Part shown: one piece after another, positions 149-51,930 of the stretch
Numbering within the stretch: position 1 is the first letter of the stretch
How the letters are laid out: each line of letters starts with the position of its first letter
Assembly: GCA_944386655.1 (NCBI GenBank)
Contig: CALXBX010000055.1
Span: 1-63,054 of the forward strand
Length of the DNA: 63,054 nucleotides
Source: an uncultured Clostridia bacterium
GTDB lineage: Bacteria > Bacillota > Clostridia > TANB77 > CAG-508
Reading direction: 5' to 3'
Position numbers and translations under genes: made by a program
Notes under the pieces: model-generated
The model's input: the letters and a program-made list of their open reading frames with translations, nothing else
Told to the model about the DNA's origin: nothing
Databases searched by the model: none

Positions 149-1288
149 TTATAATGTAATGTTATCTCTATTGGTTTGCTTTACTATATCTTGCAATATC
201 AAGCATTCTCCTGTTAGTTTAATTTTACAACCCTCATTTGTTGCAGCATTGTAAAAAATATTAAAATAATCATTTTCTTCGATTTCTGTTATTTCAGCTC
301 CTGAAATATTAGCATTTATTATTATAGTTCCATTTAAACTAGAACATCCATAGAACGTTCTGTTCATATTTATAACACTACTAGGTATAGTTGGCACTGT
401 TTCTAATTTACTACAGCCATAAAAAGTAGAAGACATATTAGTTACACCATCTGGTATTTCTATTGGTGCTAAAATTAAATTTGTGCAATCTGCAAAAGTG
501 GATGCCATAGTCGTTACATTAACAGGAATATTAGGTGCATTCTCTAAACTACTGCAACCATCAAATGTATTATTCATATTAGTAACGCTGTTTGGAATAT
601 TAAAATTTACATTTAATTTACTACAACCAAAAAAAGTACATACCATATTTATCAATTCATCTGGTAAGACAGAAATTGACTCTAAATTTGAGCATCCTCT
701 AAATGTAAATTTCATACTTTTTACTGTATTTGGTAATTTGTTTATCTCTATCAAGTCAGTACAATTAAAAAATAGCCAATCTAAATTTGTAACTGGTTTC
801 CATGTTTTTCCGCTGTCATCGCTTATATATTGTGGGATAACAATATTATCAAAATTTGTTCCATTATATCCTTTAGAAGCACTTGCAGATGATGATGTTG
901 CTAGTGATGCACTATCATTTAATCCATATCCATTAGTTACATCATCAAAATTATATTCCCACAAATCCATATTAACAGCTCTACCATCAGTTCCAACACC
1001 TATTGCAGTACTTGTTTTTTGGTCTGGATGTTTTTGTGCATTAGCCAATACTGTATCCCAATCTATCCCTGCATATTCATTTATTTGATCTTCATAACTA
1101 TTTAAAATATTTTGTTCTTCCTTTTGAGTCTGTTCTGTTTTATTCTTTGCTTCCTGTGCTCTTGTAAGTATTCCGTTGTTTCCTGTAAGTGTGGCAATTG
1201 TTATTCCTGCTAGTATTAGTAAAACAATCATAGTTACGACAAGCGCTATTAGAGTAATACCTGTTTGTTTTTTTACAATATTTTTCAT
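149..1288 (-). CDS. Surface protein: prepilin-like leader and hydrophobic N-terminus fused to BspA-type leucine-rich repeats (LRR_5-like)
   Basis: From ORF 149..1324. Start moved to ATG 1288 (MKNIVKKQTG/ITLIALVV...) because AGGAGG lies about 8 nt upstream. The MENIR extension matches the 5' UTR of the paralogs. The C-terminal half has repeated ~23-aa units (NMVCTFFGCSKLN, MNNTFDGCSSLE, MASTFADCTNL, MSSTFYGCSKLE, MNRTFYGCSSL) typical of BspA/TpLRR repeats. Confidence 0.8.
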   Translation of the reverse strand: MKNIVKKQTGITLIALVVTMIVLLILAGITIATLTGNNGILTRAQEAKNKTEQTQKEEQNILNSYEDQINEYAGIDWDTVLANAQKHPDQKTSTAIGVGTDGRAVNMDLWEYNFDDVTNGYGLNDSASLATSSSASASKGYNGTNFDNIVIPQYISDDSGKTWKPVTNLDWLFFNCTDLIEINKLPNTVKSMKFTFRGCSNLESISVLPDELINMVCTFFGCSKLNVNFNIPNSVTNMNNTFDGCSSLENAPNIPVNVTTMASTFADCTNLILAPIEIPDGVTNMSSTFYGCSKLETVPTIPSSVINMNRTFYGCSSLNGTIIINANISGAEITEIEENDYFNIFYNAATNEGCKIKLTGECLILQDIVKQTNRDNITL

Positions 1289-1465
1289 GTTCTCTTCTCC
1301 TCCTATTTTTCTTATGTTTTCCAAATTTCTCTTAACTTATTCACTTTTTCAATTTTTAATTTATGTTAATAAGTTATTATAATTATATTTTATATCTTAC
1401 CATACTTTTAAATATTGTACAGTGAGTATCATTCACGGTTGCGAGCCAATTTTCGTTTTTCCCAA

Positions 1466-6693: not shown

Positions 6694-7278
6694 ATGGATA
6701 ACATTATTGAAATTAGATGGCATGGTAGAGGCGGACAAGGTGCAAAAACTGCTTCTCTACTTCTTGCTGATGCAGCTTTTAATACTGGCAAATATATTCA
6801 AGGTTTTCCGGAATATGGTCCAGAGAGAATGGGTGCTCCTATTACTGCATACAACCGTATTAGTAGCTCTCCTATTCGTATTCATAGTAATATTTATGAA
6901 CCAGATTATGTAGTTGTTGTAGATGATTCTTTATTAGAGTCAGTTCCTGTAACAGATGGTTTGAAAGAAACTGGTGCCATTGTTATTAACACTACAAAAG
7001 ATGCTACTTATTTAAAATCTGTTTTACATGGTTATAAAGGAAAAGTGTATACAGTAGATGCTAAAAAAATATCAGAAGAAGCACTTGGCAAGTATTTCCC
7101 AAATACTCCAATGCTTGCAGCTATTGTTAAAGTCTCTGGCATTATGACAGAGGAAGAATTTATAAATGATATGCAAGGTTCTTTTAAGCACAAATTTGCA
7201 AAAAAACCTGAAGTGATTGAAGGTAATATGAAGGCTTTAGAAATGGCTTTAAAAGATGTTCATGAAGTAGAAATGTAA
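6694..7278 (+). CDS. porC: 2-oxoacid (pyruvate/ketoisovalerate-type):ferredoxin oxidoreductase, gamma subunit
   Basis: IEIRWHGRGGQGAKTA motif. Subunit size matches PorG/PorC. Start set to ATG 6694 (SD GAAAGGA 9 nt upstream); ATG 6685 is an alternative. Por versus Vor cannot be resolved by eye. Confidence 0.85.
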   Translation: MDNIIEIRWHGRGGQGAKTASLLLADAAFNTGKYIQGFPEYGPERMGAPITAYNRISSSPIRIHSNIYEPDYVVVVDDSLLESVPVTDGLKETGAIVINTTKDATYLKSVLHGYKGKVYTVDAKKISEEALGKYFPNTPMLAAIVKVSGIMTEEEFINDMQGSFKHKFAKKPEVIEGNMKALEMALKDVHEVEM

Positions 7279-7293
7279 AGGAGGAAATAGAAA

Positions 7294-7590
7294 ATGGCTG
7301 ACGTAAAAATTAATAAAGATACTCCATGGCAGGAAATGACACCAGGTGGAGATATCTACGAAGCTGGTAATTCTGTTTGTTTTAAAACAGGTGACTGGAG
7401 AAGTGTAAAACCCGTTTTTATTCCTGAAAAATGTAAACAATGTGGTCTTTGTTTCCCAGTTTGCCCAGATAATGCCATTCCAGTAGGAAAAGATCAAAAA
7501 AGAACGGATTTTAATTATGATTATTGTAAAGGTTGTGGCGTTTGTGCAAAAACTTGCCCATTCGGTGCAATTGAAATGAAAGAAATTTAA
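7294..7590 (+). CDS. porD: 2-oxoacid:ferredoxin oxidoreductase, delta subunit (2x[4Fe-4S])
   Basis: 98 aa with two Cys clusters, CKQCGLCFPVCP and CKGCGVCAKTCP. AGGAGG SD present. Confidence 0.85.
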   Translation: MADVKINKDTPWQEMTPGGDIYEAGNSVCFKTGDWRSVKPVFIPEKCKQCGLCFPVCPDNAIPVGKDQKRTDFNYDYCKGCGVCAKTCPFGAIEMKEI

Positions 7591-7610
7591 AGATAGAAAG
7601 GATGAAAAAT

Positions 7611-8801
7611 ATGAGTATTAGAGAACGTTTAAGTGGTAATGAAGCATCTGCTATTGCTATGAAGCAAATTAACCCAGATGTTGTTGCTGCTTTCCCTATT
7701 ACACCTTCTACTGAAATTCCACAATATTTTTCTACTTTTGTTAGCAATGGAACAGTAGACACAGAGTTTGTGGCAGTAGAAAGTGAACATAGTGCTATGA
7801 GTGCTTGCATTGGTGCAGAAGCTGCTGGAGGAAGAGCCATGACAGCTACTTCTTCTAATGGTCTTGCTTTAATGTGGGAGATGGTATATATTGCTTCTTC
7901 CTTAAGACTTCCTATTGTTATGCCTCTAGTAAACCGTGCTATTTCTGGTCCACTAAATATTCACAATGACCATTCTGATGCTATGGGTATTCGTGATAGT
8001 GGATGGATTATGTTGTTTTCTGAGAACAACCAAGAGGCTTATGATAATTTAATTATGGCACATCGTATAGCAGAGCATAAAGATGTAATGCTTCCTTTAT
8101 GTGTTTGCCAAGATGGATTTATTACTTCTCATTCTATTGAAAATATTGAATTAATAGAGGATGACAAAGTAAAGAGTTTTGTAGGAGAATACAAACCAGA
8201 GCATTATCTTTTAAATGATAAAGAACCAATTGCTGTTGGTCCAATGGATGTGCAAGCTTATTTATTTGAACACAAATATCAACAAGCAAATGCTATGCGT
8301 GCTGCTAAAAAAGTAATCTTAGAAGTAGCAGAAGATTTTGAGAAAATGACTGGTAGAAAATATGGTTTCTTTGAAGAATATAGACTAGAGGATGCAGAAA
8401 TTGCTATTATTTGTATGAATTCTACTGCTGGAACAACTAAAGTAGTAGTAGATGCTTTAAGAGAGCAAGGCGTAAAAGCTGGTCTTTTAAAACTTCGTGT
8501 ATTTAGACCATTCCCTGCTGAAGAAATTGCAAAAGCTGTTTCTCATGTAAAAGCTCTTGCTGTTTTAGATAAAGCAGAAAGTCTAAATGCTTGTGGCGGA
8601 GCTTTATTTACAGATGTCACTTCTGGTTTATATACAAATGGTGTGCAAGTTCCTACTGTAAGTTATGTTTATGGTATTGGTGGTAGAGATACTACTACAA
8701 AAGAAATTGAAGGTGTATACCATGATTTACAAGAAATTGCATCTACTGGAAAAGTAGAAAATCCTTATCGTTATTTTGGATTAAAAGGAGGTGCTAACTA
8801 A
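7611..8801 (+). CDS. porA: 2-oxoacid:ferredoxin oxidoreductase, alpha subunit
   Basis: N-terminus LSGNEASAIAMKQINPDVVAAFPITPST is typical of the PorA/VorB family. Start moved to ATG 7611, since the SD is adjacent to the 7602 ATG. Stop overlaps the next start (TAATG). Confidence 0.85.
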   Translation: MSIRERLSGNEASAIAMKQINPDVVAAFPITPSTEIPQYFSTFVSNGTVDTEFVAVESEHSAMSACIGAEAAGGRAMTATSSNGLALMWEMVYIASSLRLPIVMPLVNRAISGPLNIHNDHSDAMGIRDSGWIMLFSENNQEAYDNLIMAHRIAEHKDVMLPLCVCQDGFITSHSIENIELIEDDKVKSFVGEYKPEHYLLNDKEPIAVGPMDVQAYLFEHKYQQANAMRAAKKVILEVAEDFEKMTGRKYGFFEEYRLEDAEIAIICMNSTAGTTKVVVDALREQGVKAGLLKLRVFRPFPAEEIAKAVSHVKALAVLDKAESLNACGGALFTDVTSGLYTNGVQVPTVSYVYGIGGRDTTTKEIEGVYHDLQEIASTGKVENPYRYFGLKGGAN

Positions 8802-9766
8802 TGGCTTATAATTTAAAGGAAATTGTTGCTAATAAACCAGCAAGATTTACTGCTGGACACAGAATGTGCGCAGGTTGTGGTGCTCCTCCTGTTGCTAGAA
8901 TGATAATGAGAGCATTAAAAGAAGAGGATCATGCAGTGGTTGCAAATGCTACTGGATGTATGGAAGTATCTACTTGTATTTACCCTTATACTTCTTGGAC
9001 TACTTCTTATATTCACACAGCTTTTGAATGTGCAGGTGCTACTTGCTCCGGCGTAGAGGCTGCTTATAAAGCTATGAAAAGACAAGGAAAATTACCAGAA
9101 GATAAGCATACGAAATTTATTGCTTTTGGTGGAGATGGTGGAACTTATGATATTGGTCTTCAATCTTTATCTGGTGCCATGGAAAGAGGTCATGATATGA
9201 CTTATGTATGCTATGATAACGGTGCTTACATGAATACGGGTATCCAACGTTCTTCTGCTACACCTCGTTTTGCAGATACTACAACATCTCCAGCAGGTGA
9301 TGTTATTCCTGGAAAAATGCAATCTAGAAAAGATTTAACAGAAATTATGGCTTCTCATCATTTGCCATATGTAGCTCAAACTATTGGTGTAAATAACTTC
9401 AAAGATTTATATGAAAAAGCTGAAAAAGCCATTTACACAGAAGGTCCAACTTTCTTAAATGTACTTGCTCCATGCCCTAGAGGATGGGGATATCCAACAG
9501 ATATGTTAACACAAATTAATAAGTTGGCAATAGATACTTGCTATTGGCCTTTATATGAAGTAGTAGACGGTAAATATAAAATTACTTACAAGCCTGCTAA
9601 AAAACTTCCTATTGAAGAATTTTTGAAACCACAAAGAAGATTTAAACACATGTTTAAACCTGGCAATGAGTGGATGATAGAAGCTTTCCAAGAGGAAGTA
9701 GATAAGAGATGGCAAGAATTATTAGATTTAGAAGAAATGTCTAATAAAAATAACGAAAACGCTTAA
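8801..9766 (+). CDS. porB: 2-oxoacid:ferredoxin oxidoreductase, beta subunit (TPP-binding)
   Basis: Has the CAGCG Cys motif and the TPP motif GGDGGTYDIG...NGAYMNTG. Confidence 0.85.
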   Translation: MAYNLKEIVANKPARFTAGHRMCAGCGAPPVARMIMRALKEEDHAVVANATGCMEVSTCIYPYTSWTTSYIHTAFECAGATCSGVEAAYKAMKRQGKLPEDKHTKFIAFGGDGGTYDIGLQSLSGAMERGHDMTYVCYDNGAYMNTGIQRSSATPRFADTTTSPAGDVIPGKMQSRKDLTEIMASHHLPYVAQTIGVNNFKDLYEKAEKAIYTEGPTFLNVLAPCPRGWGYPTDMLTQINKLAIDTCYWPLYEVVDGKYKITYKPAKKLPIEEFLKPQRRFKHMFKPGNEWMIEAFQEEVDKRWQELLDLEEMSNKNNENA

Positions 9767-9794
9767 ATGCATTCTAAATAGAATGTTTCAAAAA

Positions 9795-9826
9795 ACAGAG
9801 AGCACTTAAATGCTCTTTGTTTTTTT
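9795..9826 (+). terminator. Rho-independent terminator of the por operon
   Basis: ACAGAGAGCA-cttaaa-TGCTCTTTGT stem (10 bp with one G-T) followed by TTTTTT. Confidence 0.75.
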
Positions 9827-9909
9827 ACACACTATTCACATAGATTTATAGTAATTTCGGTTGATTTATGATATACTATTAGTAAATTTTTGAGAAAGGA
9901 GTTAAAAAA

Positions 9910-10122
9910 ATGGCAAATGTAAAACAAAGAATGATAGATATTGTTAATTCTGTACCTGATGATTATTTCGATGGTTTAAAACCAACGGAAATGGTATTTA
10001 AACTTATGATGGAATATATAAAAAGATATGGCGAAGATGAAACAACTATTATTCCAGGTACCAATAAGCATTTAAACTATGAAACATTAAAAGAAATACT
10101 TGAAAACAAAAGTCCAAATTAA
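9910..10122 (+). CDS. Hypothetical 70-aa protein, first gene of a three-gene cassette with the ParE module
   Basis: ORF with AAAGGAG SD. No recognisable motif. Confidence 0.5.
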   Translation: MANVKQRMIDIVNSVPDDYFDGLKPTEMVFKLMMEYIKRYGEDETTIIPGTNKHLNYETLKEILENKSPN

Positions 10123-10138
10123 AAGGAGGTTGATATCA

Positions 10139-10336
10139 ATGGATTTTATAAAAAAAACTTTAAATCAAGTAAATGTACAGGAAAATACTTTATATGATAT
10201 TATTTATGATTTATTTTTCTTTGCTGAACTTCAAGAAAGTGAAGATGATATTAAGAATGGCAGAGTTTGTACATTGGAGGAATTAGAAGCTGAAATGGAG
10301 GCGAGATATGAAAGTTATCGTAACTCAAAGAGCTAA
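10139..10336 (+). CDS. Putative antitoxin of the ParE-type module
   Basis: Start moved to ATG 10139 (AGGAGG 10 nt upstream). 65 aa with an acidic C-terminus and an ESEDDIKNGRVCTLEELEAEM segment like short addiction-module antitoxins. Overlaps the toxin gene by 29 nt. Confidence 0.55.
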   Translation: MDFIKKTLNQVNVQENTLYDIIYDLFFFAELQESEDDIKNGRVCTLEELEAEMEARYESYRNSKS

Positions 10337-10649
10337 GCATAATTTATTAGATTTGTTTGATTATCATGCAAATATATCCTTAAATTATGCAATTAGAATT
10401 GATGAAAAAATTCGTTCCTATATTGAAGATTTACAATATTCCCCGTATATAGGTAAATATGTTCCAGAAATATCGGACAAGCATTATCGAGAACGAATTT
10501 GTGAAAAATTTAGAATTATTTATTTTGTTTCTGAAAAAGAAAATACCGTTTTTATAAGATACATTTTTAGTTCAAGACAAGATAAGAAAACATTTTTTGA
10601 AGTACATAAAAGTGAAATTTATAATTTTTTTAGTCAATATTTATCTTAA
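10308..10649 (+). CDS. parE: Type II toxin, RelE/ParE superfamily (ParE-like)
   Basis: 113 aa. The pattern A..DL..I..Y......YA.....I...I..L...P.IG......YRE......RIIY resembles the plasmid-stabilisation/ParE family. Confidence 0.7.
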   Translation: MKVIVTQRAKHNLLDLFDYHANISLNYAIRIDEKIRSYIEDLQYSPYIGKYVPEISDKHYRERICEKFRIIYFVSEKENTVFIRYIFSSRQDKKTFFEVHKSEIYNFFSQYLS

Positions 10650-10748
10650 ATTCTTATTGAATAGATTCCAAACACATCCCCTTTGAAAAATCTAAAGCAA
10701 AAAATAAAGATAGCAAGTCTTGCCTACCATCTTCATTTTTTCTAATAA

Positions 10749-12305
10749 TTATACAATTCGCTGATACATTGCTGTTTCATAGAAAAGTACTTCAGGTGCT
10801 GTATAACTTTCATTTCTTCTTGTATATTCTCCTCCATTACTTGCAAATGTTGTAACTAATGTTCCATCCACTACATATTGGAAAGAGAAATTTCCATATC
10901 CTGTTCCTGAACTATATCCCATATTAATAACTATATTACTTCCTGTTGTTTCGTCTACTACAGAAAACATAGGATTGGTTATTGGTATTGAATACACCGA
11001 ACCACTAAAAGTTTGTGTTCCTAAACTTGTTCCATCTTTATTAAACGTTAAAGAACCACTCATAGCTGCTCCACTTACACTAGTAGAAAAATCAAGTGTA
11101 TATCCTTGTAACTTAGTAAATGTAGCAACATTTACTTTGCTTTCTGCCATATATCTATACATACCACCATCATAAATTACAACTGCTGGTGCTGTATAAC
11201 TTTCATTTCTTCCTAGATATTCACCATTATTACTTGTAAAAGTAGTAATTTCCACTCCGTCTACCTCATATTGAAAAGAAAAATTACCATATCCCGTTCC
11301 AGAGCTATAGCCCATGTTCACAAGTACTCTATGCCCAGTATCTTTGTCTATTAAAGAAAACATTGGATTGGTGATACTTAGCGAATATACTGTTCCACTA
11401 AAAGTTTGTGTTCCTATTGTCTCTCCATCTTTGTATAAAGTAAGAGAACCAGTTAGCCCTACTCCACTTACGCTGGTATTAAATTGCAGAGAATATCCAT
11501 TCAACTTAATACCTCCGGAAAAATTTGTTCCCGTTCCAACTACTTTTTCTCCATTTACATAGGCTATTTTCCCTTCTGCAATATCATCTGCAGTTGCAGT
11601 TCCTTGTGTTTGACTTGCTAAACTATTGGCTGTTACTTTTCCACTTCCATTATGATAACCTGCTGGAATAGTATAACTTTCTCCTGCATTTAATGTTTTA
11701 TTCACTGCTCCATTATTTGCCATTGTTCCTACTAGCAATTTTCCTCCACTGTAGGCTTTATAATTTTTTAAAATATGTGCTGCTGTTGCATTTGTCTGTG
11801 CTAATTGGCTATTTAAACTATCTAGTTGTCCTTGCAAATTATTAATGGTTTCTTGTTTTAAAGCTACCTCTTCTTTTAAATCTGCTATTTCTATATCTTT
11901 TTCCGCTACTTCTGCTTTTAAGTCATTTATTTGCTTATTTAATTCTTCTATTTGACTGTTTAAATTTGATACTTGTTCTTGTAATTCTGTATTTTCACTT
12001 TGTAAATCCGCTACTTGTTGTTTTAATTCTTCTACTTGTTTTTGTAATAATTCTATCATTTGATCCTTTTTGGCGTCTTCCTCATCTTCTGTATAACTTC
12101 CATTTTGTTCTAATTCCCAAAATAATTGATTTAATTGTTCTTGCTCTTCTTGTCCTGCATATAAAATGTTTTCCCTAGCTTGTTTTGCTTTTGTAATAAT
12201 GCCATTATCCCCCACCAAGGTACTAATACTAATTCCTGCTAATATAATTAATACGATGATAGTCACCACTAAAGTTATCATTGTAATTCCATTTTCTTTT
12301 TTCAT
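10749..12305 (-). CDS. Surface protein: prepilin-like leader/hydrophobic module + ~100-aa coiled coil + duplicated C-terminal beta-rich domain
   Basis: From ORF 10749..12335. Start moved to ATG 12305 (MKKENG/ITMITLVVTIIVLIILAG...; SD AGAGGAGAG upstream). Heptad-rich region at about aa 95-180. Two ~131-aa tandem domains. Confidence 0.8.
   Translation of the reverse strand: MKKENGITMITLVVTIIVLIILAGISISTLVGDNGIITKAKQARENILYAGQEEQEQLNQLFWELEQNGSYTEDEEDAKKDQMIELLQKQVEELKQQVADLQSENTELQEQVSNLNSQIEELNKQINDLKAEVAEKDIEIADLKEEVALKQETINNLQGQLDSLNSQLAQTNATAAHILKNYKAYSGGKLLVGTMANNGAVNKTLNAGESYTIPAGYHNGSGKVTANSLASQTQGTATADDIAEGKIAYVNGEKVVGTGTNFSGGIKLNGYSLQFNTSVSGVGLTGSLTLYKDGETIGTQTFSGTVYSLSITNPMFSLIDKDTGHRVLVNMGYSSGTGYGNFSFQYEVDGVEITTFTSNNGEYLGRNESYTAPAVVIYDGGMYRYMAESKVNVATFTKLQGYTLDFSTSVSGAAMSGSLTFNKDGTSLGTQTFSGSVYSIPITNPMFSVVDETTGSNIVINMGYSSGTGYGNFSFQYVVDGTLVTTFASNGGEYTRRNESYTAPEVLFYETAMYQRIV
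10752..11507 (-). repeat. Intragenic tandem duplication (2 x ~393 nt) encoding two copies of an unknown ~131-aa domain
   Basis: KLNGYSLQFNTSVSGVGLTGSLTLYKDGETIGTQTFSGTVYSLSITNPMFS...MGYSSGTGYGNFSFQYEVDG... is repeated as KLQGYTLDFSTSVSGAAMSGSLTFNKDGTSLGTQTFSGSVYSIPITNPMFS...MGYSSGTGYGNFSFQYVVDG... Confidence 0.85.
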
Positions 12306-12357
12306 CACGTTCTCTCCTCTTCTTATGTTTTCCATTTTTTCTATTCCTTATACTTTT

Positions 12358-12386
12358 ATTATATATTACCTTTTGGTTAATTTCAA
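12358..12386 (-). promoter_or_regulatory. Sigma-A promoter (TTGAAA-17-TATAAT) of the 518-aa pilin-like gene, inside a block conserved with 14527..14650
   Basis: Minus strand: TTGAAA (12386..12381), 17-nt spacer, TATAAT (12363..12358). A 42-nt stretch TTATTATATATTACCTTTTGGTTAATT[T/A]CAATATTTCTTT recurs upstream of the 13717..14526 gene. Confidence 0.65.
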
Positions 12387-12590
12387 TATTTCTTTATTTT
12401 ATTTTCCGTTTATTCCTTTTACTTTTCAATTTATTTTATGTAACTAAGTTTTTACTATTATCTATATAACTAATTTTTACTATATTTTCCGCTTTCCCAA
12501 TATTTTCAAATTTCATGAAGATTTTCTTATTTTCATTGACTTTTCTTCTATTTTCTTATATAAATAATGGGATAATAAAAGGAGGCCTAT

Positions 12591-13679
12591 ATGGACAAAA
12601 ATAGCAATTTTCAAACTGAAACAGAAGAACCAGAAATTAAAACTACTAGCAAGAAGGTAACTATTTTTAATTTTATTTTAATTGCAGTTATTTTTATTGG
12701 ATTATTTATCTATATGCTTGCTGTAGATGGTATAGATAATATTATTTTAGTGTTAAAACAAGTAGATTACACTTGGGTATGCTGGGGGCTTCTTGCTCTA
12801 CTTGGACTTTGGTTTTGTGATACTATGTGTTTGCATATTCCTTTAAAAAAATTATACCCTACGCAAAGATTTACTAATTCTATTAAAGTAAATATGATTG
12901 GACAGTTATTTAATAACGTAACTCCATTTTCTTCTGGTGGGCAACCTATGCAAGCATATGCTCTTACTAAAACAGGGAAAAGAGCTAGTGAATCCATGTC
13001 TATCCTAACTATGAAGTTTATCGTAACACAAGTGGCTTTATTAGTCTTTACAGTTATCGTTGTGTTATTTGAATTACAATTTTTTATGGACTTATTTCAA
13101 GATTTTTTATGGGTTGCTATTTTAGGTTTCGTTGCTAACATTGTTTTGGTAATTGCTATTATTTTTGCTGGAGTTTATCCTAAATTAATTATTATGATTA
13201 CCCTACCATGGGTAAGGCTTTTAGCGAAACTAAAAATTATAAAAGACTTTGATAAAACGAAAGAAAAAGTAAGCAATAGTATTATTCATTTTAGCGATCA
13301 ATTTAAATTTATTTATACACAAAAGCAAATTATCTTGCAAATTTTTATATGGGCTACACTGCAAAGTTTATGCTATTACGCCATTACTTATATGGTATAC
13401 CGTGCTTTTGGTAATTCTGGCATTAGCTATTGGCAAATTATTCCGGCTCAAGCCTTTTTATTAATGATTATGACTATAACCCCTACACCTGGAGCTGGGC
13501 TTGGTGCAGAAGGTGGATTTTTGCTTATCTTTCAATCTATTTTTAAAAAAGGAACTATCAACTTAGCTATTTTGTTTTGGCGTATTTATACTTTCTATCT
13601 TCCTATTATTGTAGGAGCATTATTCTTAATACCTACAAAGAAATCTAAGCCTACGAAAAGAGTGCAAGAAAAAATGTAG
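12591..13679 (+). CDS. Flippase-like / lysylphosphatidylglycerol-synthase TM-region family membrane protein (UPF0104)
   Basis: 362 aa with about 8 TM helices and the motif TPFSSGGQPMQAY characteristic of this family. Confidence 0.7.
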   Translation: MDKNSNFQTETEEPEIKTTSKKVTIFNFILIAVIFIGLFIYMLAVDGIDNIILVLKQVDYTWVCWGLLALLGLWFCDTMCLHIPLKKLYPTQRFTNSIKVNMIGQLFNNVTPFSSGGQPMQAYALTKTGKRASESMSILTMKFIVTQVALLVFTVIVVLFELQFFMDLFQDFLWVAILGFVANIVLVIAIIFAGVYPKLIIMITLPWVRLLAKLKIIKDFDKTKEKVSNSIIHFSDQFKFIYTQKQIILQIFIWATLQSLCYYAITYMVYRAFGNSGISYWQIIPAQAFLLMIMTITPTPGAGLGAEGGFLLIFQSIFKKGTINLAILFWRIYTFYLPIIVGALFLIPTKKSKPTKRVQEKM

Positions 13680-13710
13680 CAAGAAAGCATTGCTACATTT
13701 TTCTTTTTTT
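13674..13710 (+). terminator. Rho-independent terminator overlapping the stop codon of 12591..13679
   Basis: ATGTAGCAA-gaaagca-TTGCTACAT (9-bp stem) followed by TTTTCTTTTTTT. Confidence 0.7.
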
Positions 13711-13716
13711 ATTTTA

Positions 13717-14526
13717 TTATTGAATTTTTATGTTTAAGTTTGCTTGCACAATACGGGTATATCCTGCATATACTCGTATTGTAAGCTTACTGTAACTAGA
13801 TATGTCATAAGTTAAATTTATATTACTATTATTAGTTATAGCACTTGACAAAGCCACTCCATCTGCCAATATTTGTAAAGACCCACCATCTGATTGGCTC
13901 GAAAAACTACCAGTAATTGTTAAAGTTCTATAGTTTTCTATTCCTAGATTTTGTATTGGGTAAGCATTGGCTCCTGATGTTACATTTGGAGCCGTGTATA
14001 TACTCGTTGAAAATTCAAGTCCACTTCCTCCAAGTCCTGCTTCATAACCATCATTATATCCTGCGTCATACCCTTTATTAGTTCCGGTTATTTTTTCACC
14101 ATTTACATATGCTATTTCACCTTCTAGTATATCCTCCGCTGTAGCCGTGGCATCTTTTGTTCTTTCCTGCAATATTTTAGCTATATTCTCCGCCATTGTT
14201 TCTGCTGTATCTGTCTCTGCTGTAGCAACTCCTTCATTGGTTATAGCTGTTGCTATTATCTTTCTAAAATTTTCTAGTTTTTCTATAGCATCTGCCATAG
14301 AGTCATCGAAAATTCCTTCCCCTCCATTTGCTAATTCTTCATATAAACTATTTAGTTGTTGTTCTTCTTCTACTCTTGCTAGCTCCATATTCTCTCTTGC
14401 CTTTTGTGCTTGCGAGATAATTCCATTCTCTCCTATCGTTGCATTTAAACTAACCCCCGCTAATATAATTAATACAATGATAGTCACTGCCAATGTTATC
14501 ATGGTAATTCCATTTTCTTTTCTCAT
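13717..14526 (-). CDS. Surface protein: prepilin-like leader/hydrophobic module + short variable C-terminal domain
   Basis: MRKENG/ITMITLAVTIIVLIILAGVSLNATIGENGIISQAQKARE. Shares the AEDILEGEIAYVNGEKITGT motif with the 10749 gene (ADDIAEGKIAYVNGEKVVGT). Confidence 0.8.
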   Translation of the reverse strand: MRKENGITMITLAVTIIVLIILAGVSLNATIGENGIISQAQKARENMELARVEEEQQLNSLYEELANGGEGIFDDSMADAIEKLENFRKIIATAITNEGVATAETDTAETMAENIAKILQERTKDATATAEDILEGEIAYVNGEKITGTNKGYDAGYNDGYEAGLGGSGLEFSTSIYTAPNVTSGANAYPIQNLGIENYRTLTITGSFSSQSDGGSLQILADGVALSSAITNNSNINLTYDISSYSKLTIRVYAGYTRIVQANLNIKIQ

Positions 14527-14578
14527 GTTTCCTGTCTCCTATTCTTATGTTTTCCTTTTTTTCTATATTTATACCTTT

Positions 14579-14607
14579 ATTATATATTACCTTTTGGTTA
14601 ATTACAA
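14579..14607 (-). promoter_or_regulatory. Sigma-A promoter (TTGTAA-17-TATAAT), paralogous to 12358..12386
   Basis: Minus strand: TTGTAA (14607..14602), 17-nt spacer, TATAAT (14584..14579), in the conserved block. Confidence 0.6.
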
Positions 14608-14700
14608 TATTTCTTTCTTTTATTTTCTATTTATTTTTTTCATCTGACAATCTATTTTATGTAATTTTCTATTTACAATCACACTTTTATTAAAAACCTC

Positions 14701-14744
14701 AAAAAAAGTAGCCGTCTTTCTTTCGAAATTTTGCTACTTTTTTT
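14701..14744. terminator. Bidirectional terminator-like hairpin 3' of yoeB
   Basis: A7-AGTAGC ... GCTACT-T6, with a large 20-nt loop. Confidence 0.5.
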
Positions 14745-14747
14745 ATT

Positions 14748-15014
14748 TTATATATTTTCATAATGCGTCCATAAACTAATAATCTTAACTATTTTTTCTT
14801 CCTCATAAACCTGATATACTAATCTATGTTTTATATTAATTCTTCTAGAATATAGTCCTTGTAAAACACCTACTAATTTTTCATATGGCGGTGGAGTCTG
14901 GAATGGATTATTCTTTATTACTTCTATCAGTGCTAATGCTTTTTTATCTAAATGATTAGATTTCAATTTTGGTATATCTTTTGTTGCCATTTTTGTATAA
15001 ACTACTTTATACAT
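14748..15014 (-). CDS. yoeB: Type II toxin, YoeB/Txe family
   Basis: ...NPFQTPPPYEKLVGVLQGLYSRRINIKHRLVYQV....IVKIISLWTHYE matches the YoeB/Txe signature. Start set to ATG 15014 (TAATG overlap with yefM stop, GAGGTGG 8 nt upstream). Confidence 0.85.
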   Translation of the reverse strand: MYKVVYTKMATKDIPKLKSNHLDKKALALIEVIKNNPFQTPPPYEKLVGVLQGLYSRRINIKHRLVYQVYEEEKIVKIISLWTHYENI

Positions 15015-15262
15015 TACCATTCCACCTCTTCTTCTGAAACGCAATCTTCTATTTTTTCTTCTTTTCCTTTTATTAGTTTTTCTTTCATTCCTTGTATATT
15101 TAATAAATTTACAGTTTCTATTAATCCATTGTAATCTTCTTCAGACAATACAATAGCATTTCCATTTTTTGTAGAAACGTTAATTGGTTCATTATACTTT
15201 ATGGTTGTTTCCAATAATTCATAAATATCTTTTCTAAAATTTGTAATATTTATATTTGTCAT
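15014..15262 (-). CDS. yefM: Type II antitoxin, Phd/YefM family
   Basis: The N-terminus ITNFRKDIYELLETTIKYNEPINVSTKNGNAIVLSEEDYNGLIETVNLL is a classic Phd/YefM fold sequence. Confidence 0.85.
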   Translation of the reverse strand: MTNINITNFRKDIYELLETTIKYNEPINVSTKNGNAIVLSEEDYNGLIETVNLLNIQGMKEKLIKGKEEKIEDCVSEEEVEW

Positions 15263-15285
15263 GACTTAACACCTCCTATAATTTT

Positions 15286-15314
15286 AGTATAACGTACGTT
15301 TTTACGTTTGTCAA
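15286..15314 (-). promoter_or_regulatory. yefM-yoeB promoter (TTGACA-17-TATACT) with palindromic spacer, a likely autoregulatory operator
   Basis: Minus strand: TTGACA (15314..15309), spacer AACGTAAAAACGTACGT containing the ACGTACGT palindrome and AACGTA/TACGTT arms, then TATACT (15291..15286). Confidence 0.6.
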
Positions 15315-15325
15315 TATTTTATTTT

Positions 15326-15371
15326 AAAAAAGCACTATCATTAAGTTTTTCCTTAATTTTTAGTGCTTTTT
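15326..15371 (-). terminator. Terminator 3' of the ferredoxin gene (bidirectional shape)
   Basis: AAAAAGCACTA ... TAGTGCTTTTT arms with flanking A/T runs. Confidence 0.55.
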
Positions 15372-15401
15372 ATGTATTTCTATTTCTTTATTTTCTTTGC
15401 C

Positions 15402-15572
15402 CTAAGCTTCTTCTGGTGCTCCCACTGGACATACATTTGCACAGTTTCCACAGCTGATGCATTGTTCTGGGTCTATTACATATCTATCATCTCCCTCAGA
15501 AATACATCCTACTGGACATTCTGCTGCACAAGCTCCACATTTAATACATTTTTCTGTTATTTTATATGCCAT
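15402..15572 (-). CDS. Clostridial-type 2x[4Fe-4S] ferredoxin
   Basis: MAYKITEKCIKCGACAAECPVGCI...CISCGNCANVCPVGAP, two CxxCxxCxxxCP motifs. Start at ATG 15572 (GGTGGTG SD). Confidence 0.95.
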   Translation of the reverse strand: MAYKITEKCIKCGACAAECPVGCISEGDDRYVIDPEQCISCGNCANVCPVGAPEEA

Positions 15573-15671
15573 TTTTATCACCACCTTTCCATGCTACCTT
15601 TATTTTTATGTTTTTTCTTGCTGCTATTCTACTTTTACTGCTATTTACTATTTGATTGCATCTTCTTTTTG

Positions 15672-16598
15672 TTATTCTATTTCATCTTCCATCATCGTAT
15701 TCTTTTCTAACTTTTCTAAGTTTTCCAATTCTTCTAGTTCTTGCAAATGTTCCTCTTCTTCTGGGTCAATCGTCTCTGTTTCTGTATTTTTTATAATTTT
15801 TACTTCTCCTGCATCATATTTTTTATAATAAAAATCTCCTGCATCATCTTTTAATTTTACTCTTACTTTTTCTTTTAAGGTTTCTACACTTTCTACTGTT
15901 CCTTCTCCTTCTGGTGTTTTTACAATGGCTCCTATTTTAGGAAGTTTTTTTAATTTTTCTTCGTAAACTTCTTGTTCGTACTTTAAACAACACATTAATC
16001 TTCCGCAATTTCCTGAGATTTTAGATGGGTTTAGAGATAAGTTTTGTTCTTTTGCCATTTTAATAGAAACGGTTTCAAAATTACTTAAGAAAGAGCAGCA
16101 ACAAAGTTCTCTTCCACATACGCCATTTCCACCTATTCTTTTTACTTCGTCTCTTACTCCTATTTGCCTTAATTCTATTCTTGTTCTAAAAATAGATGCT
16201 AAATCTTTTACTAATTCTCTAAAATCAATTCTTCCATCTGCTGTAAAATAAAATAATACTTTGCTATTATCAAACTTAAATTCTACATCGATTAATGTCA
16301 TTTCCAACTTGTGTTCTTTAATTTTTTTCTCACAAATAGCAAATGCTTCTTTTTCTTTTTTCTTATTTTCTTCATAATGTTTTTTATCTTTGTAGGTAGC
16401 AACACGAAGTACTTTTTTTAATGGTTTTACAATTTTATCTTCTGGCATCTGGCGATTAGCAATAACTACTTCTCCATATTCTTCCCCCTGTAAGGTTTCT
16501 ACTACTACAAAATCTTTTGTGCTAATTTTTAAATTTCCTGGATCAAAAAAATAAATTTTTCCTGGTTTTTTAAATCTAACACCTATTATATTTTTCAT
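15672..16598 (-). CDS. yaaT: PSP1-domain stage 0 sporulation / RicT (YaaT) protein
   Basis: Cys-rich core GRELCCCSFL...GNCGRLMCCLKYE typical of YaaT/PSP1. Conserved position downstream of holB. Confidence 0.9.
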   Translation of the reverse strand: MKNIIGVRFKKPGKIYFFDPGNLKISTKDFVVVETLQGEEYGEVVIANRQMPEDKIVKPLKKVLRVATYKDKKHYEENKKKEKEAFAICEKKIKEHKLEMTLIDVEFKFDNSKVLFYFTADGRIDFRELVKDLASIFRTRIELRQIGVRDEVKRIGGNGVCGRELCCCSFLSNFETVSIKMAKEQNLSLNPSKISGNCGRLMCCLKYEQEVYEEKLKKLPKIGAIVKTPEGEGTVESVETLKEKVRVKLKDDAGDFYYKKYDAGEVKIIKNTETETIDPEEEEHLQELEELENLEKLEKNTMMEDEIE

Positions 16599-17509: not shown

Positions 17510-18127
17510 TTATTCTACTTCTCCCCATAAATCAAATGGCCAGAAACGTATCCATACTTTACTTTCTATTTTTTCTAACGGAACACAACCAAAACTTCTA
17601 CAGTCTGAACTTTGCTGTCTATTATCTCCCATGGCAAATACACAATCGTCTGGTACTGTAAAGTCTGTTAAATTTGGATTTTTACTATCTGTGGTTACTC
17701 CCTCTTGCAAATAATCTTCTTCTAGAAGCTCTCCATTAATATATACTTTTCCATCTTCTATTTTGACATGTTCTCCTGGAAGAGCAATTACTCTTTTAAT
17801 GTAACTTTTTTTCCCGATTTCTAGTACATAATAAACAAAACTAGAAAAAATATTAGTTGGCTCATTTTCATATTCCGCTCTTACAGAGTGTGCATAAGAA
17901 TTACTAGGAGCTTCAAAGGTGATAATATCTCCTCTTTGAGGTACTTCATGGAATGTTCTCACCATTCTATTTAAAATTAATCTTTGTCCTTGTTTTAGTG
18001 TAGGATACATGGATGGTTGTTGCACTACAGTTGGCGTTCCTATATAAAAACGAATTAATAACGCAAGTACAATAGCTATTACAAAACAAGCTATCCATTC
18101 TAATATATTTTTTGTTTTTTCACTCAT
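17510..18127 (-). CDS. lepB: Signal peptidase I (S26)
   Basis: SMYPTL (Ser box), KRVIALPGE (Lys box), GDNRQQSSDCR. Start set to ATG 18127; the track start at 18175 is a GTG lying in a TATAAT-like sequence. Confidence 0.9.
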   Translation of the reverse strand: MSEKTKNILEWIACFVIAIVLALLIRFYIGTPTVVQQPSMYPTLKQGQRLILNRMVRTFHEVPQRGDIITFEAPSNSYAHSVRAEYENEPTNIFSSFVYYVLEIGKKSYIKRVIALPGEHVKIEDGKVYINGELLEEDYLQEGVTTDSKNPNLTDFTVPDDCVFAMGDNRQQSSDCRSFGCVPLEKIESKVWIRFWPFDLWGEVE

Positions 18128-18198
18128 TGAATAAGGTCTCTTCCTCTCTTTTTTATCTACCCATTTATTATACACAATTTTTGTGTATATGTCTACCT

Positions 18199-21525: not shown

Positions 21526-21552
21526 GAACTTTAAGGAACGTCCCTAAAGTTC
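21526..21552. repeat. Palindromic intergenic element GAACTTTAAGGAACGTCCCTAAAGTTC overlapping the stop codon of the glucan synthase gene
   Basis: On the minus strand the element reads GAA CTT TAG GGACGTTCC..., so it encodes the last two codons (E, L) and the TAG stop of ORF 21544..29859. Confidence 0.85.
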
Positions 21553-24500
21553 AATTTGAATTTCGTAGATACCACCTTCTTTAGATAATTTGATTTGTTT
21601 ATCTTCTTTTTCTACTCCATTGACAAGGAATTTTTCAACTTTTCCATTGGTTTGCATATTTTCTTTTGCTGTACTTTTTCCGTTTGGATTTTCTACCTTT
21701 ATATGGTAGATGCTATTTCCATAACGATATTCTATTTTATATTCTCTCCACTTACGTGGTATGCATGGTTCTATTTTTAATATTTCATTTTCTATTTTTA
21801 GTCCCAAGATGTATTCTATTCCCGCTACTTGCATCCAACTGGCAGAACCTGTATACCATGTCCAACCACCTCGTCCTGCTAGGTTTCCTCTAGAATAAAT
21901 ATCTGCTGCTATGACATAAGGCTCTACTTTATATTTTAATGCCATTTCTTTTGTTCTTGCATGTTCTATTGGATTTATCATTCTAAATAGCTCTAAGGCT
22001 TTATCTCCAAACCCTAACATACTAAAGGCTATAATTGCCCAAATGGCTCCATGTGTATATTGCCCTCCATTTTCTCTTGTTCCAGGAAGATATGCTTTGA
22101 TATATCCTGGTTCTAAATTACTTTTATCGAACGGTGGATCTAGCAAACGAATTAACCCATTTTCTTTATCTACTAAATGATTTTCTAAGCTTTCTAAAGA
22201 AATATATTTTTTGTCGTTATCCCCCGCTCCTGAAATAGTAGCCCAACTTTGGGATATTCCATCTATTTTACATTCCTCGTTTTGAATGGTCCCTAATATT
22301 TCTCCATCATCACAAAAGGCTCTTCTAAACCATCTTCCATCCCATGCATTGGTGTTTAGGGCTTTTTTTAGCATTTCCATGGTTTTCTTATATTCTTCTT
22401 GGTAGGCTTCTTCTCGTTCTATTAGTTCTCCTTTTCTAGTTTGTTTGCTTTCTCTTACTTGTACATTTTCTCCTTCTTGTTCATCTTTTCTTTCTCCTAA
22501 TTCTATTTTTCTTTGTATTTCTCTTATTCCCTGTTTTTCTCGTTCTTCTTCTTTCCATTTTTCTATTTGTTTTTCTTGCAGAGGAAGCCATCTTTGCAGA
22601 ACATCATATAGGAAAAATCCAAGCCATACGCTTTCTCCTTTGCCTTTATTGCCTACTGTACTTAGTCCATCGTTCCAATCTCCAGAACCTATTTTAGGTA
22701 AGTTATTTTCTCCAAATTGCATTGCTCTTCTAATAGCTCTCGTGCAATGTTCATAAATACTAGCCGTCTCTTCTGTCTCTAAATATAGGTCATAGCGTTC
22801 GTCTTCCCCTTCTTCTAAAGGTGCTCCCTCTAGAAACGGCGTTTGTTCTTCTAACAAACTCGTATCTCCTGTTACTTTACAATACTCTTCTGTAAGGTAT
22901 ACCAGCCACAAAAGGTCATCCGAAAACCTAGTACGAATTCCTCTTCCTGTTTCCTCATGCCACCAATGTTCTACATCTCCTTCTCGGAACTGATGTCTAC
23001 TATGCTTAATAATTTGATTTCTCATTTTTTCTGGCATAGTGTATTTTAGTCCTAGTGTGTCTTGCAGTTGGTCTCTAAATCCTAATGCTCCTCCTGATTG
23101 CTGATAAGCTGACCTTGCCCAAAGTCTACTAACCATTGCTTGATAAATCATCCAACCATTCATTAAAATGTTAAAAGATTCTAATGGTGTTTCTACTTGT
23201 AATTTTTGAATGGTTTCTTGCCAATATCTTTGTACTTCTTCTAATGCTTTTTCACAATTTTGTATACTACTATATTGATAAGCTTTATCCAAACATTGTA
23301 TTTTGTTTTCTTCCATCCCAAAGACAAGAGAAATTTCTTTTTGTTCTAAAGCCTCTAAATTTACTTCTATTTCTATTGCTATAATGCCCTCTTGTCCTAG
23401 GCTATTCTCTTCGTTTAATCCTTTTTTGTGCATCGCCTCTGGATTTTGCAAACTGCCATTTCCTATAAAAAAGCTTTTGCTTCCTGTATAGGATTGTATT
23501 TCTTCGCTACTGGTCACATAAGCAAAACCTGGAATGATTTCATCTCCATAATTTTTAGCAAGAATGGTATTGGCTTTTTTTATAAATTCTATTCCTATCC
23601 AACCTTTGGTTTGTTCTTCATCCTCTCCTAATACTGGTTTGATATAGTAAACTAATTTTATTTTTTTCTTTTGTGGTGCTAAATTTTGCAGATGTATTAT
23701 ATAAATTTTGGCTTTATCTTCTCGTGGTACAAATATTGTGGTTTCTTGTTTGATAGTAGAACTTGTATGCATAAATCTGCTATAGCCAAATCCATAAATT
23801 GCATCATAATCATTATCGTCTGGCATAGGATTTAATCCCAAAGAACATACCTTTTTGCTTTCTTCGTCCTTCATATAAATAACTTCTGATGGGATATCTT
23901 CTACAGGTGTATTTGCCCAACTGGATAATCGATTTAGCCTACTATTTTCACACCAAGTAAAACCTCCCATACTATCTGTTACTAATGTTCCAAAATGCTC
24001 ATTTGCCATCATATGACTCCATACATTTGGCAGGCGTTTGTCTTTGTTTTGTTTGATGTGATATTCTTTTTGAGAAGGTAAAAATCCTCCAAATTCATTA
24101 TCATATTTTAATTTTTCTGCCTCTAAACTTTGTCTTTGTACCTCTTCTTGTAATAAATATGGTACTTGTTCATCCTTCATAACGTCTTGTTTATTGTCCG
24201 TATATTCTTCTTCTCTATCTTTTAAATTTCTGGCTACTGGTCCTTTTTTACTATCGATAATTAAATTGGCTCTTGCTTCTAATACTTCTTTTTCTTCTAT
24301 ATTTTCTAGTACCCAAATGCCCCCTTTTTGATTTTGCATATAGGCTAGATTTTCGTTATAGATACAATTTTGAATCTCTTCTCTTACATAATTTTCGTAG
24401 CTATTTTCTTCTTCGTTTAAAATAACTAAATCTATGGCAATATGTTTACTACGATAAAAGTTATATGCTTTTAATATATCTTTTAATACGTAACTATCGC

Positions 24501-43676: not shown

Positions 43677-43720
43677 AGTTCACCTCTTGCTTTATGATAG
43701 CATATACATCATCTAAAAGT

Positions 43721-43774
43721 AAAGAAAATCACAAGAAATCTCTGTAAATAAGAAGTTTTCTTGTGATTTTCTTT
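43721..43774 (-). terminator. Strong hairpin (perfect 18-bp stem) ending the T4SS-like operon
   Basis: AAAGAAAATCACAAGAAA (43721..43738) pairs perfectly with TTTCTTGTGATTTTCTTT (43757..43774). It starts 4 nt 3' of the stop at 43779, and the 3' arm is U-rich on the minus strand. Confidence 0.65.
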
Positions 43775-43778
43775 AGGA

Positions 43779-45011: not shown

Positions 45012-45022
45012 AATATTTACTC

Positions 45023-48271: not shown

Positions 48272-48288
48272 ATTCACCACCACTTCTA

Positions 48289-49230: not shown

Positions 49231-49260
49231 TGTAATAGTCCTCCTTTAATTTTCTATGTT

Positions 49261-51912: not shown

Positions 51913-51930
51913 TTACTTTATGTCCTCCCC

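Follow-up and report, generated by a model that had tools for sequence, protein, structure and literature searches.

Three genes with a common N-terminal module

We analyzed a window of 63,054 nucleotides (the whole stretch of DNA under study) on contig CALXBX010000055.1 of an uncultured Clostridia bacterium, with a focus on three minus-strand genes, here labelled A, B, and C, whose products begin with a common N-terminal module (Table 1). The window has a G+C content of ~30% and carries ordinary Firmicute housekeeping genes. In each of the three proteins, a basic leader ending in Gly is followed by a 24-residue hydrophobic stretch and then by the segment (T/V/I)GxNGI(L/I). The N-termini read MKNIVKKQTG/ITLIALVVTMIVLLILAGITIATLTGNNGILTRAQEAK in A, MKKENG/ITMITLVVTIIVLIILAGISISTLVGDNGIITKAKQAR in B, and MRKENG/ITMITLAVTIIVLIILAGVSLNATIGENGIISQAQKAR in C, where the slash follows the residue counted as position -1. 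The hydrophobic stretch of A (ITLIALVVTMIVLLILAGITIATL) contains no charge, those of B and C are similar, and position +5 is Ala in A and Thr in B and C. BLASTP aligned B and C with 52% identity over residues 1-91 (E value 5e-25) and A and B with 56% identity over 59 residues (E value 1e-16), beyond which the latter two diverge. At the DNA level, the module of B (12166-12305) is 76% identical to that of C (14387-14526) and 64% identical to 1137-1276 in A; within the window, the module protein is better conserved than its DNA. No fourth module gene was found in the window by a looser scan of all six frames.

Behind the module, the three proteins are unrelated. The A protein matches Pfam LRR_5 (45.5 bits) and DUF285 (35.5 bits). 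The B protein yielded Pfam matches of coiled-coil type only, and its C-terminal part holds two copies of a ~100-130-amino-acid (aa) domain without family assignment, accompanied by an internal DNA duplication (10764-11063 versus 11157-11456, 72% identity, repeat family D1). The C protein is short. These observations, drawn from the open reading frames, BLASTP, and the six-frame scan, bear out an earlier reading of the DNA letters alone (the original prediction), which had described the common N-terminus, the unrelated bodies (leucine-rich repeats in A, a coiled coil plus a duplication in B), and the Ala or Thr at +5. Missing from it was a 68-nt internal motif common to B and C, which encodes TATA(D/E)DI.EG.IAYVNGEK..GT.

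The DNA upstream of the genes is conserved as well. The promoter/5′ untranslated region blocks of B and C are 79% identical, and the two top sigma-70-like sites of the region 10600-14900 fall within them, with 11 of 12 matches for B and 10 of 12 for C. This agrees with the near-identical upstream DNA containing TTG(A/T)AA-17-TATAAT that had been noticed at the outset. The untranslated region had likewise been described as common to B and C, which stands; its restriction to those two genes does not, because the 14-mer GGAAAACATAAGAA also precedes A. Exactly three copies of this 14-mer occur in the window, one ahead of each module gene, compared with a chance expectation of 0.13. The alternative in-frame start of B, an ATG at 12335, lies within this leader motif; the ATG at 12305 is the likely start because it is placed after the ribosome-binding site.

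A family-specific motif was also found across species (loci L007-L089). The purine-rich string ACA(A/T)AAGA, located just upstream of the ribosome-binding site, occurs within 45 nt of the start in 22/77 module genes compared with 9/634 of the remaining genes in these loci (odds ratio 28, p 3e-16), and a related string, CAAAAGAA, stands ahead of three of the operon pilin genes described below. We read the common leader motif as a putative expression signal of the family, mechanism aside. The common promoter together with the conserved purine-rich leader motif suggests that the A/B/C-type family is expressed as a set. Two other explanations of the upstream DNA were rejected: an RNA element in the leader, as no leader matched an Rfam family (only two tRNAs matched) and the leaders are unstructured at ~0 kcal/mol, and an invertible promoter, as no convincing inverted repeats flank the common block. 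Separately, a 151-nt gut metatranscriptome contig matched window positions 13813-13961, within the head-coding part of C, with 100% identity, which is weak evidence for transcription of C, given possible DNA carry-over.

The module family and its presence in pilus operons

A total of 5,402 proteins were found with the three N-termini as queries. A family profile built from 58 N-termini and run on 1.84 billion cluster representatives matched 32,344 clusters at E<=1e-3 and 22,126 at E<=1e-10; the module was N-terminal in 149 of the 150 matches listed, and the exception (P0241) has two copies of it. Of the 120 best relatives, 115 have Gly and 5 have Ala at position -1, 117 have Ile and 3 have Val at position +1, and the leaders are basic, with a length of 5-30 aa and a median net charge of +3. 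The consensus reads KG/ITLIALVITIIVLLILAGVSIAMLTGENGILTQAQKAK. The module is near-invariant between species, and the remainder of each protein is unrelated.

We scanned one genome per species and examined the best 80 loci, all of which belong to bins of uncultured Clostridia from the gut of humans, rabbits, chickens, and sheep. Several of these loci fell within one bin, and some carry tandem arrays of two to three module genes. Full-length family members comprise ~130-900 aa. A census of the module, as proposed in the original prediction, showed the passengers to be diverse: among 66 representatives, LRR_5 was found 10 times, Glug 7 times, DUF285 and FGE-sulfatase 5 times each, and GDSL lipase 3 times, with single cases of glycoside hydrolase families GH5 and GH18, a polysaccharide deacetylase, and an EndoS-like domain. 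Fragmentary homologs on long contigs had scattered housekeeping neighbours only. A phage origin was considered and rejected: none of 50,697 phage records matched, and a set of 2.9 million viral contigs contained only 12 relatives. NCBIfam names none of the module proteins, NCBI labels the relatives hypothetical, and one homolog is called "Tfp pilus assembly protein PilE" at JGI. In the literature, the motif string appeared in no paper and we found no description of the module family.

The position of the module in related genomes is central to its interpretation. Clustering of the genes around the module genes of the 80 loci, together with tblastn, showed that in five related gut Clostridia bins (L038, L044, L067, L070, and L085) a module protein of 136-180 aa is encoded inside a complete pilus operon, in the order PilM/N, PilO-like, membrane protein, pilin, PilD-like, two minor pilins, PilB, PilT, and PilC (Table 1, for L070). 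The same operon lies between rsmB and the S10 ribosomal operon in metagenome contigs L093-L095. The Walker-A motif of its PilB reads APTGEGKTT, unlike the GPTGSGK type. The operon pilin has Ala at +5, without the glutamate usual at this position (Glu5), and one of the minor pilins has Asp at +5 in 4/4 loci (GFTGID, GITNID, GFTTAD); an Asp+5 minor pilin beside an Ala+5 main pilin is the usual pattern reversed. We saw no canonical pilin with Glu5 across 1.22 Mb of related loci. The operon and longer module proteins also occur together: bin CALXFF01 contains the L070 operon along with module proteins of 408 and 633 aa (L041 and L079), and bin CANQTU01 contains the L085 operon along with a 430-aa module protein and a fragment of an A24 peptidase gene (L032). 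Contigs with 80-90% similarity to the operon are numerous in four metagenomes that include the window, but they are not assignable to the genome of the window.

Two side observations concern the operon. Downstream of it lie genes for a ROK-family protein and a Wzy_C (O-antigen-ligase-like) membrane protein (L093:16663-19093; L070:16692-19072), and the latter could be a pilin glycosylase. In four gut metagenomes, the contig depth was 250-700 over 240 nt at the module, compared with ~1-14 over the adjoining pilin body (L070:9882-10122); therefore, module DNA is many-fold more abundant than any single carrier gene.

Sequence comparisons connect the long module proteins with this pilin and with known ones. 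The A protein is 54% identical to the L070 operon pilin over 72 aa (E value 1e-20). N_methyl (PF07963) is by far the commonest family on the N-termini (50/58 at E<=1, best 4e-5). A short-pilin profile of 105 sequences, searched against the PDB, matched type IV pilins only (MshA, E value 0.0034; geopilin chains, 0.013 and 0.019), and the alignments were in register from the leader through Gly-1 to approximately position 24-31. A class III signal consists of a hydrophilic leader invariably ending in Gly or Ala, followed by 20-25 mainly hydrophobic residues (PMC10191384); the Gly-ended hydrophilic leader and the hydrophobic residues are present in A, B, and C.

We also compared predicted structures. 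The AlphaFold2 model of C (66 sequences, mean pLDDT 74.9) consists of a helix at residues 5-31, a break at GENG, a helix at 36-67, and confident helices at 76-97 and 108-122, followed by a hairpin at 138-147 (the AYVNGEK motif common with B), a helix at 152-167, and a beta-sandwich at 170-268. The model of the operon pilin (105 sequences, pLDDT 86.6, pTM 0.70) has helices at 6-32 and 37-74, a short helix, and a three-stranded sheet. In these models, the alpha1 part is common to both proteins. Foldseek searches with the head of C returned weak jelly-roll matches (endospore-appendage subunits, YomS, TNF-like lectins, and carbohydrate-binding modules), among which there was no pilin. The original prediction had suggested looking for a pilin fold behind the helix; in C, the one long member that was modelled, alpha1 with a break leads instead to a jelly-roll head without a pilin match.

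Finally, the passengers behave as cassettes. Among 65 homologs of C, the median identity is 66% over residues 1-62, 67% over residues 63-150, and 12% over residues 151-269, and in 42 of the 65 the stalk is at least 60% identical with a head below 25%. The C-type stalk is conserved and its head is swapped. In a strain 99.5% identical elsewhere, IS66 stands in place of B (L002:12111-14531), and contigs of other strains break at the stalk/head boundary of C. Both genes lie in a small variable island between toxin-antitoxin pairs (9910-10649 and 14748-15262). Directly downstream of A, beyond window position 1, lies the N-terminus of a tyrosine recombinase/integrase (L090:11392-11673). Assemblies with DNA downstream of A stop ~500 bp past A, which suggests a repeated mobile element there.

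A proposed pilin-like function and the alternatives

Overall, we propose, with a probability of roughly 0.65, that A, B, and C are modular type IV pilin-like proteins that are taken up by a pilus and show their passengers on the filament or its tip. Because the same module heads the pilin inside the pilus operons of related bins, we conclude from sequence that it represents the lineage's own prepilin signal and alpha1N helix, with a signal that has diverged from G/FTLIE to G/ITLIA. Its parts are predicted to be a class III signal, alpha1N, a Gly/Asn-rich break (TGxNG), and the start of alpha1C. Much of what the original prediction had offered as one possibility, pilin-like modular adhesins on a filament encoded elsewhere, has gained support from pilin homology, the register with known pilins, the operons of related bins, and the co-occurrence within bins. 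Its label "tip-type", which rested on the lack of Glu5 and a comparison with GspK, has not, since the operon pilin lacks Glu5 too; the absence is therefore a trait of the lineage rather than a sign of where a subunit sits in the filament. Its second suggestion, a distinct, undescribed module, is half right: the module derives from a prepilin signal and in this sense is not distinct, and it does act as a cassette platform that is unannotated (NCBIfam names none).

For this reading, the sequence data show the homology of the module to prepilin signals and its place on the operon pilin of related genomes, and from these we infer cleavage, filament incorporation, adhesion, and the machinery in the genome of the window. 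The precursor would insert in the membrane with its leader in the cytoplasm, and an A24 prepilin peptidase would cut behind the leader Gly, leaving the mature protein held in the membrane by alpha1N. Pilus machinery encoded elsewhere in the genome (PilB, PilC, and PilM/N/O) could then lift the protein into the filament, which may be possible because its alpha1N matches that of the pilin. It would probably be placed at or near the tip. The passenger would be exposed beyond the wall, namely, leucine-rich repeats in A, a coiled-coil stalk with tandem domains in B, and a helical stalk with a jelly-roll head in C, and would probably serve as an adhesin or ligand binder. As Glu5 is missing in the subunits of this lineage, the filament core would therefore pack without the Glu5-to-N-terminus salt bridge.

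Several observations weigh against this proposal. The original prediction had noted that the window contains comEC and lacks pilB, pilC, pilD, and comG, and the gene scan confirmed this and found neither a type IV pilus gene nor an A24 peptidase gene there; no pilus or A24 gene was found in the flanks either, which cover 10 kb to the right of the window and ~500 bp to the left. Most module genes are located away from pilus genes. The pilin signatures named in the original prediction fell short: N_methyl scored 15.6 bits on the whole A protein and 18.9 bits on its N-terminus alone (cutoff 21.2), the Pfam scan gave no N_methyl match on B and C, and the NCBIfam scan gave no TIGR02532 match on A, B, or C. 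Glu5 is absent from A, B, and C, and position +5 among the 120 best relatives is Ala in 87, Thr in 18, Ser in 15, and Glu in 0; this residue is described as "often, but not always" present in class III signals and aids subunit docking in filaments (PMC10191384). In the model of C, alpha1 is followed by more helices and a jelly roll, without a pilin head, and Foldseek returned no significant pilin match even for the operon pilin model. Genomes carry several to many paralogs, enzymes included, which exceeds the evident needs of a pilus tip, and a large, enzyme-bearing family fits plain membrane display equally.

The processing enzyme must be counted on the same side, at least in part. The PilD-like protein of the operon (L070 10541-11356, L044, L038, and L067) has only the A24_N_bact zinc-finger domain (~100 bits); it keeps the first catalytic Asp and lacks the second, that of the GxGD motif. 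A Peptidase_A24 gene (66-71 bits) is nevertheless present in related bins. It encodes a separate 250-aa protein between a yqeG-like HAD gene and pepP (L051:4158-4910; L050:19152-19904), with both catalytic Asp residues kept and the N-terminal domain missing. Both kinds of gene occur within one bin, CANQTU01 (L032 and L085). These sequences suggest a prepilin peptidase divided between two genes.

The alternative that fits best with these objections is that the prepilin peptidase cuts the leader and the proteins then stay in the membrane, anchored by alpha1N, or in short pseudopilus-like assemblies, where they present their passengers on the cell surface and never enter a long pilus; they would thus be bacterial equivalents of archaeal surface proteins with class III signals. 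Such a fate would suit a family of 22,126 clusters at E<=1e-10 that has several paralogs per genome, some of them in tandem, and enzymes among its passengers (GH5, GH18, GDSL lipase, and deacetylase), as well as the lack of a pilin head in the C model and among its Foldseek matches and the loss of Glu5, a docking aid in filaments. A precedent is found in Sulfolobus, where sugar-binding proteins with class III signals are described as depending on the bindosome assembly system (PMC3047682). However, the alpha1N of the long proteins is near-identical to that of the operon pilin across species, which a mere anchor would not need, and pili are known to carry modular pilins with bulky passengers (PMC8179133). 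We therefore regard retention in the membrane as rather unlikely, and incorporation into a pilus as the better account.

It is improbable that the N-terminus is instead an uncleaved anchor, or a Sec signal cut by signal peptidase I after VSIA/ISIS, that has been conserved only among recent paralogs. Position -1 is Gly or Ala in 120/120 relatives and G/ITLIAL is near-invariant, whereas Sec (type I) signals vary freely, and the same N-terminus is found on the pilin of pilus operons. Many members do have small residues (SIA, SIS) behind the hydrophobic stretch, the window encodes a signal peptidase I (17510-18175), and N_methyl remains below its cutoff for A, B, and C; however, the candidate sites (SIA, SIS, SLN, and SIN) vary, with SLNA in C and SINM in many relatives. 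Moreover, module genes are not recent paralogs, because the module is conserved over many species and 22,126 clusters. That the conserved 5′ block is in essence a DNA-level landing pad for passenger swapping, with the function of the module protein secondary, seems very improbable, for although B and C have promoter, leader, module, and internal motif in common, the homologs of C drop from a median of ~66% (1-150) to 12% (151-269), IS66 replaces B in another strain, and assemblies break at module/stalk boundaries and beside the tyrosine recombinase gene, the module DNA is only 64-76% identical among A, B, and C with the protein better conserved, no inverted repeats of an invertible promoter were found, and the operon context explains the constraint at the protein level. 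Such swapping can be compatible with the pilin-like reading, alongside it rather than in its place.

A wider extension of the pilin-like reading is possible, and we advance it only tentatively. These bacteria may represent a Glu5-free pilus lineage in which alpha1N serves as an address tag for much of the surface proteome, including swappable-head adhesins, glycoside hydrolases, and esterases. The pilus would then have a second role in displaying or secreting many paralogs per genome, which would be co-regulated via ACA(A/T)AAGA and processed by a split peptidase composed of the catalytic A24 protein from a housekeeping site and the zinc-finger protein from the operon.

Neighbouring genes, known systems, and implications

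The window contains further surface-related genes. A chromosomal type IV secretion-like cluster is located at 42099-56944, between housekeeping genes (Table 1); no relaxase or coupling protein was seen in it, and the end that runs from the pilin genes to VirB4 also occurs in another strain. We considered this cluster as a partner of the module and rejected it, as it shows no association with family members in other loci. Large envelope genes occupy 21544-29859 and 34806-39773, and the window encodes a 2771-aa protein with GH94/glucoamylase domains and a 1655-aa adhesin with thioester (TED) and DUF11 domains. Beyond the right end of the window (L109:1-8140), there are two adhesins of ~1,700 aa with SdrD_B repeats.

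Table 1. Positions of the module genes, their shared elements, and other features in the window, and of the pilus operon in related loci (L numbers)
Feature	Position	Strand	Description
Gene A, 379 aa	149..1288	-	Open reading frame; module, short helix, then BspA-type leucine-rich repeats
Gene B, 518 aa	10749..12305	-	Open reading frame; module, coiled coil ~residues 50-185, two hairpin motifs, duplicated domain
Gene C, 269 aa	13717..14526	-	Open reading frame; module, helical stalk to ~residue 167, beta-sandwich head 170-268
Module of A	1145..1288	-	Leader MKNIVKKQTG, hydrophobic ITLIALVVTMIVLLILAGITIATL, then TGNNGILTRAQEAK; repeat family D2
Module of B, 140 nt coding	12166..12305	-	Repeat family D2
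Module of C, 140 nt coding	14387..14526	-	Repeat family D2
Promoter/5′ untranslated region block of B	12329..12458	-	Repeat family D4; TTGAAA-17-TATAAT at 12386..12358
Promoter/5′ untranslated region block of C	14550..14679	-	Repeat family D4; TTGTAA-17-TATAAT at 14607..14579
14-mer GGAAAACATAAGAA before A	1309..1322	-	Directly upstream of GGAGGAG ribosome-binding site
14-mer GGAAAACATAAGAA before B	12320..12333	-	Exact-copy count
14-mer GGAAAACATAAGAA before C	14542..14555	-	Exact-copy count
Hairpin motif TATADDIAEGKIAYVNGEKVVGT in B	11533..11600	-	Repeat family D5; weaker second copy 11725-11792
Hairpin motif TATAEDILEGEIAYVNGEKITGT in C	14081..14148	-	Repeat family D5; stalk/head boundary
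ParE-like gene and small upstream open reading frames	10308-10649		Toxin-antitoxin side of island
YoeB/YefM	14748-15262		Toxin-antitoxin side of island
L070 PilM/N-like	7099-8721		Weak PilN match, E value 0.012
L070 PilO-like	8718-9443		Named by position; without Pfam support
L070 148-aa membrane protein	9480-9926		Without Pfam match
L070 pilin, MMKNQKG/ITLIALVITIIVLLILAGISIAMLTGDNGILT	10007-10444		N_methyl 23.2 bits, above cutoff 21.2
L070 PilD-like	10541-11356		A24_N_bact 102.5 bits
L070 minor pilin 1	11386-11811		Without Pfam match
L070 minor pilin 2	11850-12284		N_methyl 16.8 bits, below cutoff
L070 PilB	12379-14016		T2SSE 342 bits
L070 PilT	14060-15157		T2SSE 147 bits
L070 PilC	15175-16521		T2SSF 92.6 bits
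Asp+5 minor pilin	L070:11386-11811; L044:11443-11859; L038:2176-2580; L067:2483-2926
1086-aa protein	45023-48283		Secretion-like cluster; weak C39-like peptidase match, below cutoff
883-aa membrane protein	49261-51912		Secretion-like cluster; T4SS_pilin match
VirB4-like ATPase	51931-53913		Secretion-like cluster
PrgI-like gene	55074-55421		Secretion-like cluster
Three TrbC/VirB2-like pilin genes	55563-56944		Secretion-like cluster

The closest known parallel to A, B, and C is offered by modular pilins, of which more than 1,200 proteins with 264 architectures were found via IPR012902 (Raynaud et al. 2021, PMC8179133). Similar to PilB (with a vWA domain) and PilC (with a lectin domain) of Streptococcus sanguinis (PMC8179133), the module proteins combine a class III signal and alpha1N with a grafted domain of non-pilus origin, occur in a monoderm host, and carry adhesin-type passengers (leucine-rich repeats, a lectin-like beta-sandwich) and sometimes enzymes. 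However, S. sanguinis-type pilins have a canonical class III signal and a complete small pilin module with a beta-sheet (PMC8179133), whereas Glu5 is missing here, signature hidden Markov models mostly fail, and, as judged from the model of C only, the passenger follows directly after alpha1, with the pilin moiety reduced to alpha1. Additionally, the module genes are scattered outside the pilus operon, and the family comprises 22,126 clusters compared with the ~1,200 proteins surveyed. The cap minor pilins GspK, PilK, and PilX also lack Glu5, may have an extra domain, and are thought to be at the tip (PMC10191384); in those systems only the cap is without Glu5, whereas here the operon pilin lacks it too and one minor pilin has Asp+5. 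The concept of modular pilins and that of Glu5-less tip caps are thus already established (PMC8179133, PMC10191384). What differs from known pilins is the lineage-wide loss of Glu5 that includes the operon pilin, the failing signatures, the scattered genes, and the size of the family.

More distant systems share single aspects. In the Kil Tad pilus of Myxococcus (PMC12075869), one filament system likewise uses alternative subunits that expose variable domains. Kil is a Tad/Flp system with four defined complexes, whereas the lineage described here has a type IVa pilus-like operon and possibly dozens of single-chain candidates, known from sequence. Class III signals without Glu5 occur in archaea. 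As in archaeal class III surface proteins, diverse extracellular proteins of a single-membrane cell would be processed by a prepilin-type peptidase, although the archaeal systems use another branch of the peptidase family and another assembly system; unlike them, the module has a bacterial-type signal (G/ITLIA compared with the canonical G/FTLIE), common with a type IVa pilus-like operon that includes PilT. The Vsp/Vlp proteins of mycoplasmas have lipoprotein signals, and their switching relies on defined mechanisms of inversion or slippage. The module genes resemble them in joining a conserved promoter, leader, and signal at the 5′ end to divergent bodies and in their strain-variable content; unlike in Vsp/Vlp, no such switch was found here in a search for inverted repeats.

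If the pilin-like reading is correct, more than 22,000 clusters of "hypothetical" gut-bacterial surface proteins would gain a common logic of export and display, and the Ala+5 pilus would be a natural test of the Glu5-to-N-terminus salt bridge in subunit docking. Pilin surveys that rely on IPR012902 or Glu5 have missed the module proteins. Swappable heads on a stalk, strain-to-strain variation, and heads of leucine-rich repeat or lectin-like type suggest that uncultured Clostridia, which are abundant in the gut of humans, chickens, rabbits, and sheep, have a variable set of adhesins. For these Clostridia, the invariant 30-residue module provides an easy handle on the surface proteome in metagenomes.

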